A stretch of DNA of 64,000 nucleotides from positions 310,001-374,000 of the forward strand of contig NZ_BAABFP010000007.1 in assembly GCF_039541115.1 (NCBI RefSeq), given 5' to 3'. Shown one piece after another: positions 51,839 to 52,147 of this stretch. Source of the DNA: Angustibacter luteus. GTDB lineage: Bacteria > Actinomycetota > Actinomycetes > Actinomycetales > Angustibacteraceae. The position numbers and the translations under genes are program-made. A model generated the notes under the pieces. That model was given only the letters and a program-made list of their open reading frames with translations, was not told where the DNA came from and ran no database searches. Within the stretch, counting starts at the first letter, position 1. Each line of letters opens with the position of its first letter.

Positions 51839-52147
51839 ATGAGTGAGATGCCGAACGTGGGCCGAGTGCCAGCGTTGACGCTGGGGTGGCGCTTGAAGAT
51901 GTCTCTTGGCGAGATGAAGGCCGAAGAGATGGGCGAGCTGCTGGGCGTGTCCCGGCAGACACTGAGCCGCTGGATGGGCGACAAGGGCGTACCGCGCCTG
52001 GCCTACATCAAGCAGTGGGCTCTGGCGACGGGGATCGACTACAACTGGCTGGTGTCTGGGAACGCAGAAAACCCCCGCCCGGGAGGTCCGGACGAGGGTC
52101 TGCGTACTGAAGTGCGCCATCAGGGACTCGAACCCCGAACCCGCTGA
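51839..52147 (+). CDS. XRE-family immunity repressor (prophage form, truncated by integration)
   Basis: TLGWRLK...EMGELLGVSRQTLSRW...YIKQWALATGIDYNWLVSG; reads through the att core. Confidence 0.9.
   Translation: MSEMPNVGRVPALTLGWRLKMSLGEMKAEEMGELLGVSRQTLSRWMGDKGVPRLAYIKQWALATGIDYNWLVSGNAENPRPGGPDEGLRTEVRHQGLEPRTR
52112..52146. repeat. Prophage attachment site (right junction)
   Basis: Identical to 19206-19240. Confidence 0.95.

Follow-up and report, generated by a model that had tools for sequence, protein, structure and literature searches.

We find that the window (the whole 64,000-nucleotide stretch of Angustibacter luteus DNA analysed here) carries what is most probably an integration-dependent immunity cassette of the BPs type, made up of int, rep and a cro-like gene on a complete-looking prophage in the tRNA-Lys(CTT) gene. 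A three-gene cassette of this kind corresponds to the integration-dependent immunity scheme, as set out in the available text of two publications (PMC3694055; PMC4557955). An earlier note on this DNA had likened the architecture to that of mycobacteriophage BPs, and the likeness is supported by the homology of Rep and Int to BPs gp33 and gp32, by agreement with the published gene order, and by a predicted C-terminal LAA that also terminates the tmRNA tag of the host.

The limits of the element are given by an exact 35-bp direct repeat, GTGCGCCATCAGGGACTCGAACCCCGAACCCGCTG, with copies at 19206–19240 (attL common core) and 52112–52146 (attR common core), both read on the plus strand; beyond the repeat, four of the next six bases agree. 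ARAGORN places a tRNA-Lys(CTT) gene on the minus strand at 52112–52185 (Rfam RF00005, 69 bits), and the repeat therefore represents the 3′ 35 nt of this tRNA, which is restored intact by the phage-borne core. It is the single tRNA-Lys(CTT) gene that ARAGORN finds in the host genome (4.16 Mb, 72% G+C). The integrated prophage, counted with both cores, spans 19206–52146 (32,941 bp). Its extent is supported by the core repeat, by PHROG matches, by empty attB sites in genomes of the same genus, and by a G+C content of 69.5% versus 73.2% and 71.5% in the host flanks. In four of these genomes (G001, G003, G004 and G005), left flank, core and remaining tRNA are contiguous, with the 50–57 bp that precede the left core in the window running directly into core and tRNA. 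That the element sits in tRNA-Lys(CTT), as had been proposed from the sequence, is thus upheld by ARAGORN, by Rfam and by the empty site in same-genus genomes. A fifth genome, G002, likewise has one unoccupied core, but with a different left flank. There, a MetE-like gene lies ∼3.5 kb from tRNA-Lys (G002:C1:1419495-1422966; loci L016 and L021), compared to 344 bp in the window, and the DNA flanking the core on its left is of unrelated sequence; this spacing may reflect another insertion or a rearrangement at the same tRNA-Lys.

On the host side of attL, at 19164–19195 on the minus strand, lies a predicted RNA hairpin (–38 kcal/mol, z –5.6), which in the empty site stands directly downstream of tRNA-Lys. 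The hairpin occurs at the same position in G001 and G003–G005 (loci L017–L020), where both arms are altered together and pairing is retained. Covariation of this sort, 3′ of tRNA-Lys, fits a conserved terminator.

Within the host's family, Rep was present in 1 of 15 genomes, namely the host's own, and a copy was found in 0 of the 14 others. We scanned genome contigs with Rep and obtained 11 loci, nine of which match the tRNA-Lys-encoded peptide alone, beside an ordinary tRNA gene without a repressor; the other two lack the core. Because these matches reflect the tRNA-encoded peptide, they are uninformative on the spread of the prophage. They do reveal an exact copy of the 35-bp core in Blastococcus, Nocardia, Nostocoides, Geodermatophilus, Marmoricola and a Dermatophilaceae MAG.

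The repressor gene occupies 51839–52147 on the plus strand and, in the prophage, encodes a protein of 102 aa, an assignment that draws on translation, Pfam, homology and an AlphaFold model. It starts with ATG at 51839, ends with TGA at 52145–52147, and has the C-terminus EVRHQGLEPRTR; residues 92–102 are encoded by the att core. Translation bears out the earlier claim that the repressor ORF reads through the 35-bp core (VRHQGLEPRTR) into this stop codon. The statements about the flanking bases held as well: the TG of the stop lies within the core and its final A, at 52147, is a tRNA base and the first host base outside the core, while the base after the core at the other junction is G (19241). 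Read in frame, the left junction gives VRHQGLEPRTRWFSASDRLAA, followed by TAA at 19269–19271, and we interpret 19241–19271 (plus strand) as the detached 3′ end of the viral form of rep, WFSASDRLAA plus the stop codon. The rejoined, viral Rep is predicted to have 112 aa, 10 more than the prophage form, and to end in LAA, in agreement with what had been claimed for the long form. Since the left copy of the core can be read without any joining, this predicted form follows directly. The protein collection contained no protein identical to the 112-aa form; the sole 100% match was the 102-aa form.

In Pfam, Rep matches Phage_CI_repr with 28.3 bits and HTH_3 with 26.7 bits, both above the respective cut-off, and no peptidase S24 domain was found in it. 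An AlphaFold model built on 50 sequences (mean pLDDT 78) shows an HTH domain of five helices in residues 15–73 with pLDDT >90. For residues 81–102 the pLDDT averages ∼50, without secondary structure; given this low-confidence, unstructured C-terminus, the model suggests that residues encoded by the core would be exposed, as would any extension of them.

What is appended in the viral form resembles a proteolysis signal. LAA is the part of an ssrA-type tag that ClpX recognizes. The tmRNA tag of the host is ADSKRTDFALAA, ending in ALAA, and the predicted long Rep shares its final three residues (LAA) with this tag, whereas the prophage form ends in RTR. Among 2757 long host ORFs with high GC3, an LAA end occurs in 4 and an AA end in 60. 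ClpX is present in the host (643.9 bits, compared to a cut-off of 370.75). At the sequence level, then, WFSASDRLAA is a putative ssrA-like degron.

To place Rep among its relatives, we searched 50,697 phage records by tblastn. Matches were found in 244 records, all at <60% identity: 162 from phages of Mycobacterium, 62 Gordonia, 17 Pseudomonas, 2 Arthrobacter and 1 Curtobacterium. At the best-matching positions, the records annotate an immunity repressor. The highest-scoring matches are to Rahul gp20 (41.0% over 100% of the query) and to mycobacteriophages of Cluster G, among them BPs, whose gp33 is 36.9% identical over 99%; none of the 17 Pseudomonas phage records is among the best 40 of the 244 matches. 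In the protein collection, the closest named homologue is from Kineococcus gynurae (65%). We collected 49 homologues from the protein database (E up to 1e-5), of which 34 end in AA. Four have the end seen here, ...EPRTR, and in another four ...RTR is followed by an extension (three ending in AA and one in AS).

For an independent set we took 50 IMG/VR loci and sorted them by context rather than by C-terminus. Pfam confirmed PF00589 in 26 of the 29 loci checked. In L026, ARAGORN makes an odd call of 97 nt that covers the stop, but an integrase lies downstream, and we counted this locus in the integrase group. Where a tyrosine integrase lies downstream on the same strand, 19/26 repressors (15/22 distinct tails) end in AA, compared to 0/18 where the stop falls at the provirus end or under an ARAGORN tRNA; the loci are kin, some of them GenBank phage copies and some near-duplicates, so these counts overstate independence and describe a pattern rather than a statistical test. 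The 18 end instead in tRNA-derived peptides (...EPRTR, ...RDSNPEPAD, ...EGFEPPTF, ...ESNPRPIHYE and ...LNQRPSD). Four further loci, three in which no integrase was found (L041, L048, L054) and one on a cut contig (L070), all end in AA, and in 2/50 there is no stop before the locus end. The pattern suggests that, among the relatives, the AA end is confined to the unintegrated form.

The tail predicted here may be compared with ...RTRWFGVPSIGLHAA in Rahul and ...RTRWFGVPRLLPAA in IMG/VR locus L031. The T-arm of tRNA-Lys is read by related repressors (L026–L075, P0004, P0030) in two frames, VRHQGLEPRTR and CAIRDSNPEPAD, and in further repressors the reading frame runs through the T-arm of tRNA-Arg, tRNA-Thr or tRNA-Asn. 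Given such variety in frames and tRNAs, the tRNA-encoded peptide looks like a passive linker.

These comparisons also bear on how the tail might act. Loss of the tail could be the switch without any part for ClpXP, either because another protease (ClpC1P, Lon or FtsH) removes the long form or because the tail disables Rep directly, for example by disturbing oligomerization. In keeping with this, the tails of relatives vary greatly in length and sequence, the long Rep of BPs ends in KAS, and 7/26 integrase-linked forms end in something other than AA, namely AS (3), VA, GA, PV and LR; the sequence rule for the tag is therefore loose. Moreover, the accessible text of PMC3694055 speaks of 'proteases such as ClpXP', naming the enzyme without proof. 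Against direct inactivation, albeit for BPs only, the long and short forms of the BPs repressor are described in PMC4557955 as binding DNA alike. The last three residues of the tail here, furthermore, are those of the host tmRNA tag, ClpX is encoded by the host, and the AA end is the one feature retained across tails that are otherwise unrelated. We consider a ClpXP-independent action of the tail unlikely, though it is the strongest of the competing explanations, and favor recognition of LAA by ClpXP.

In the prophage, the attR end carries rep and the attL end carries int, the two genes both running on the plus strand, with the stop codon of the repressor tail ending at 19271 and the int ORF beginning at 19274 or 19451. 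The longest ORF of the tyrosine integrase gene (19274–20290, plus strand) has 338 codons for amino acids and matches PF00589 (65.5 bits) and phrog_1. Identity of Int reaches 53% with Rahul gp19, an integrase of 275 aa (138/261), and 46% with BPs gp32 (127/277), and both alignments begin at residue 70 of the longest ORF. Third-position G+C is 0.68 in the first 59 codons (19274–19450) versus 0.89 in the rest of the ORF. The real start is probably ATG 19451, giving a protein of 279 aa, near the 275–297 aa of the Gordonia integrases; the ∼180 bp from the repressor tail to this codon may be a non-coding attP arm or regulatory DNA. Int itself ends in ...GAASDVA (compare TWAA in Rahul, AIVA in GRU3 and VAGF in BPs). 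Many relatives' integrases have AA ends, but not all of them, and because the end here is DVA rather than AA, a degradation tag on Int is uncertain.

Upstream of rep, a divergent cro-like gene of 63 aa (51540–51731, minus strand; Pfam HTH_17, 33.5 bits) is the first gene of the leftward lytic operon. Its position is that of BPs gp34 (Cro), Rahul gp21 and GRU3 Orf20; HTH_17 scores 40 bits in GRU3 Orf20 and 24.5 bits, below the cut-off, in BPs gp34. The 107 bp between the two genes (51732–51838) form the rep–cro control region, which we characterized by promoter scan and repeat search. A promoter-like site, TTGACG-18-CATCAT, occupies 51803–51832 and ends 6 nt before the ATG of rep, a spacing that suggests a leaderless rep mRNA. 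The region also holds an 11-nt repeat (TGACTCATGTC / TGACGCATGTC, at 51752 and 51804) and a 15-nt inverted repeat (51724–51758), which we put forward, tentatively, as candidate operators. The first 11-nt copy falls between the start of the cro-like gene and a TTGACA (51768–51763, minus strand) seen by eye and absent from the promoter-scan output; its placement resembles that of OR in BPs as described in PMC4557955. Neither candidate motif is enriched in the window: TGACKCATGTC, at up to one mismatch, occurs 3 times versus 2.21 expected, and the 9-nt palindrome ATGACTCAT occurs 4 times versus 3.87 expected. Dispersed operator sites like those of BPs were not found across the prophage with either of these motifs.

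Taken together, these features lead us to propose the following sequence of events. In the free, circular phage, rep, the core, the 10-codon tail and int would form one unit, expressed from the promoter-like site at 51803–51832, with the 35-bp attP core inside the 3′ end of rep. The viral Rep would have 112 aa and end in ...SDRLAA; since this end copies the host tmRNA tag, the protein should be cleared by proteases of the host, ClpXP being the likeliest. Degradation of long Rep would leave the divergent promoter open, and lytic growth would ensue. If Int acts first, however, a crossover in the core would put tRNA sequence in place of the final 31 bp of rep. With the tRNA's A in place of the phage's G, TGG would become TGA, and the prophage would make a Rep of 102 aa without the tail. 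This short form should be stable, keep the divergent lytic promoter repressed and provide immunity. Integration would at the same time shift int 33 kb away, to the far end of the prophage and off the rep promoter. For the scheme to work, identity between phage and tRNA must end at or before the G/A base, because the viral form would otherwise be truncated too. Three elements of the scheme are inferences, namely that long Rep is degraded, that short Rep is active, and where the operators lie.

The new position of int in the prophage raises the question of what drives its expression there. Broussard and Hatfull mention the expression of adjacent host genes as a possible influence (PMC3694055, in the text available). 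Upstream of prophage int, on the same strand, are a gene for a MetE-like methyltransferase (17835–18869), whose product is 89% identical to a protein of Angustibacter sp. McL0619, and a 51-codon ORF (18960–19115). Between these host genes and int there is the tRNA hairpin alone, without a T-run on the int strand. With that as the sole barrier, host read-through could set the rate of Int synthesis. One may then speculate that read-through sets the level of Int, and hence of excision, which would rebuild the LAA-tagged Rep and induce the phage. Gene orientation supports this extension of the scheme, which we nonetheless regard as doubtful. If true, phage induction would answer to host metabolism and not to DNA damage.

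We scanned 30 ORFs between the cores against PHROGs and obtained matches to an integrase, endolysin, tape measure, minor tail, head-tail adaptor, major head, portal and large terminase, as well as to an HNH endonuclease and two ParB-like proteins. All scanned prophage genes are on the minus strand, except the integrase gene and three cargo genes. The element thus has the appearance of a complete siphovirus-type prophage in tRNA-Lys(CTT). PHROG gave no xis annotation among the 30 ORFs, the cro-like gene itself having an excisionase-type HTH_17 domain, and within the window Rfam detected no riboswitch or other element besides the tRNA.

One could suppose, even so, that the prophage is a decaying remnant, fixed in place with dead int or lytic genes, and that the cassette has ceased to work. 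The longest int ORF begins with 59 atypical codons, and several stretches of the prophage have no called gene in the ORF list. Yet both cores are exact, and the rep, int and cro-like ORFs are open. The head, tail, lysis and packaging set found by PHROG is full, with no break noticed, and absence of the element from the 14 other genomes of the family suggests a recent arrival. On balance, we judge decay to be slightly less credible still than a ClpXP-independent tail, and take the cassette to be that of a prophage that looks complete.

Two further groups of genes deserve mention. The interval from int to the lysis genes contains three cargo ORFs (20606–22739). The middle one (21108–22160, plus strand; 350 aa) matches Pfam SIR2_2 with E 1.2e-3, below the cut-off, and PADLOC SIR2 with E 2.9e-6; it is flanked by ORFs of 163 and 191 aa without an assigned family. 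Applied to five cargo and late ORFs, PADLOC gave weak SIR2 matches for one ORF and nothing else. The SIR2-like ORF may be a prophage-borne defense gene. In the early region, on the minus strand, are the two ParB-like genes (46750–47841 and 48134–49972; phrog_6218), the longer of which contains Pfam ParB_N and HTH_ParB; the pair has in common a 65-nt stretch with 72% identity (47168–47232 and 49236–49300).

How does this cassette compare with those already described? The Arthrobacter phage Galaxy, which according to the available text of PMC5513430 has a similar int–rep layout without tags and with attP elsewhere, indicates that layout alone is no proof, so one might regard the rep–att overlap as a historical by-product, with both Rep forms equally functional and immunity conventional and independent of integration; this we consider highly improbable, as attP here lies inside rep, the tail carries a host-like LAA, Rep and Int are homologous to the experimentally studied BPs pair, and the C-terminus of relatives depends on state (AA in 19/26 versus 0/18).

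BPs itself (Cluster G; gp32 Int, gp33 Rep, gp34 Cro) has the same three-gene layout, with attP within the 3′ end of rep and over a tRNA T-arm. Its prophage Rep is of similar size, ∼102–103 aa, and its viral form bears a C-terminal tag, as reported in what is available of PMC4557955 and PMC3694055. The two systems differ in the core (the BPs core encodes EGFEPPTF), in the tail (33 residues ending in KAS in BPs versus 10 ending in LAA here), in the size of Int (398 aa versus 279–338 aa here) and in the host, which for BPs is Mycobacterium.

The phages of Gordonia come closer. Pope et al. (2017; PMC5559632) state, in the portion accessible, that about half of the attP-mapped Gordonia phages with a tyrosine integrase have attP inside the repressor together with an ssrA-like tag. 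The same source gives an identical 37-bp attP, corresponding to tRNA-Lys attB in G. terrae, for the Cluster CW phages GMA5, GRU3, Jeanie and McGonagall. An alignment shows no difference between the window's 35-bp core and the corresponding sequence of GRU3 and of Rahul (OR521067). In Rahul it is also read in the same frame, ...VRHQGLEPRTRWF..., ahead of an LHAA end, the repressor C-terminus being ...VRHQGLEPRTRWFGVPSIGLHAA. As here, the Gordonia tRNA-Lys phages have tails of 10–12 aa, small integrases and a gene of MerR/HTH_17 type at the cro position. Unlike the 32.9-kb prophage described here, they are free phages of 16–18 kb, with unrelated structural genes and from a different order of Actinomycetes. 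GRU3 differs in addition in that its core is read one base later (the CAIRDSNPEPAD frame), with a prophage stop at the tRNA's TAA rather than TGA. The constraint on phage–tRNA identity applies to GRU3 as well, whose sequence parts from that of the tRNA at the latter's TAA; the tRNA's TGATTAA thus provides a prophage stop in either frame. We also noted that the deposited GRU3 genome (L003 2746–2900; KR053197.1 ∼14074–14228) contains 77 bp repeated perfectly in tandem (2.0 copies, 100% match).

These parallels limit what is new. The earlier note had suggested that a tRNA-Lys site in a non-mycobacterial host might be novel, and this suggestion does not stand: as Pope et al. (2017; PMC5559632) already describe a tRNA-Lys attB for Cluster CW phages of Gordonia, both the site and a non-mycobacterial host are in print, and GRU3 and Rahul have the identical core. 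What is new is only the host group, Angustibacter, and the short tail of 10 residues; the class of mechanism is known. A full-text search found no paper pairing 'integration-dependent immunity' with Angustibacter or with Kineo- names, although the prophage list of the founding 2013 study may contain close relatives of the present host. Our analysis thereby adds an Angustibacter example of integration-dependent immunity and leaves knowledge of the mechanism unchanged. It also indicates that the same 35-bp tRNA-Lys core serves unrelated phages across actinobacterial orders. The compact int–attP–rep cassette could be a possible integrating vector for such hosts, along the lines suggested for Gordonia in the available text of PMC5559632.

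Outside this circle, the Bifidobacterium prophages Bb423phi2 and 689b-1 are alike by description: int is next to attL, rep is next to attR, and rejoining in silico is reported to give a tagged repressor (PMC6109161, as far as its available text goes), whereas the host branch and the att site are different. Lambda CI/Cro offers a more distant parallel, with an HTH repressor and a divergent cro-like gene that have a common control region. Unlike in lambda, no cII, cIII or separate xis was recognized here, and the mode of repressor loss is distinct: CI is removed by RecA-stimulated self-cleavage, whereas here the decision would be tied to recombination, with inactivation by predicted tag-directed proteolysis.
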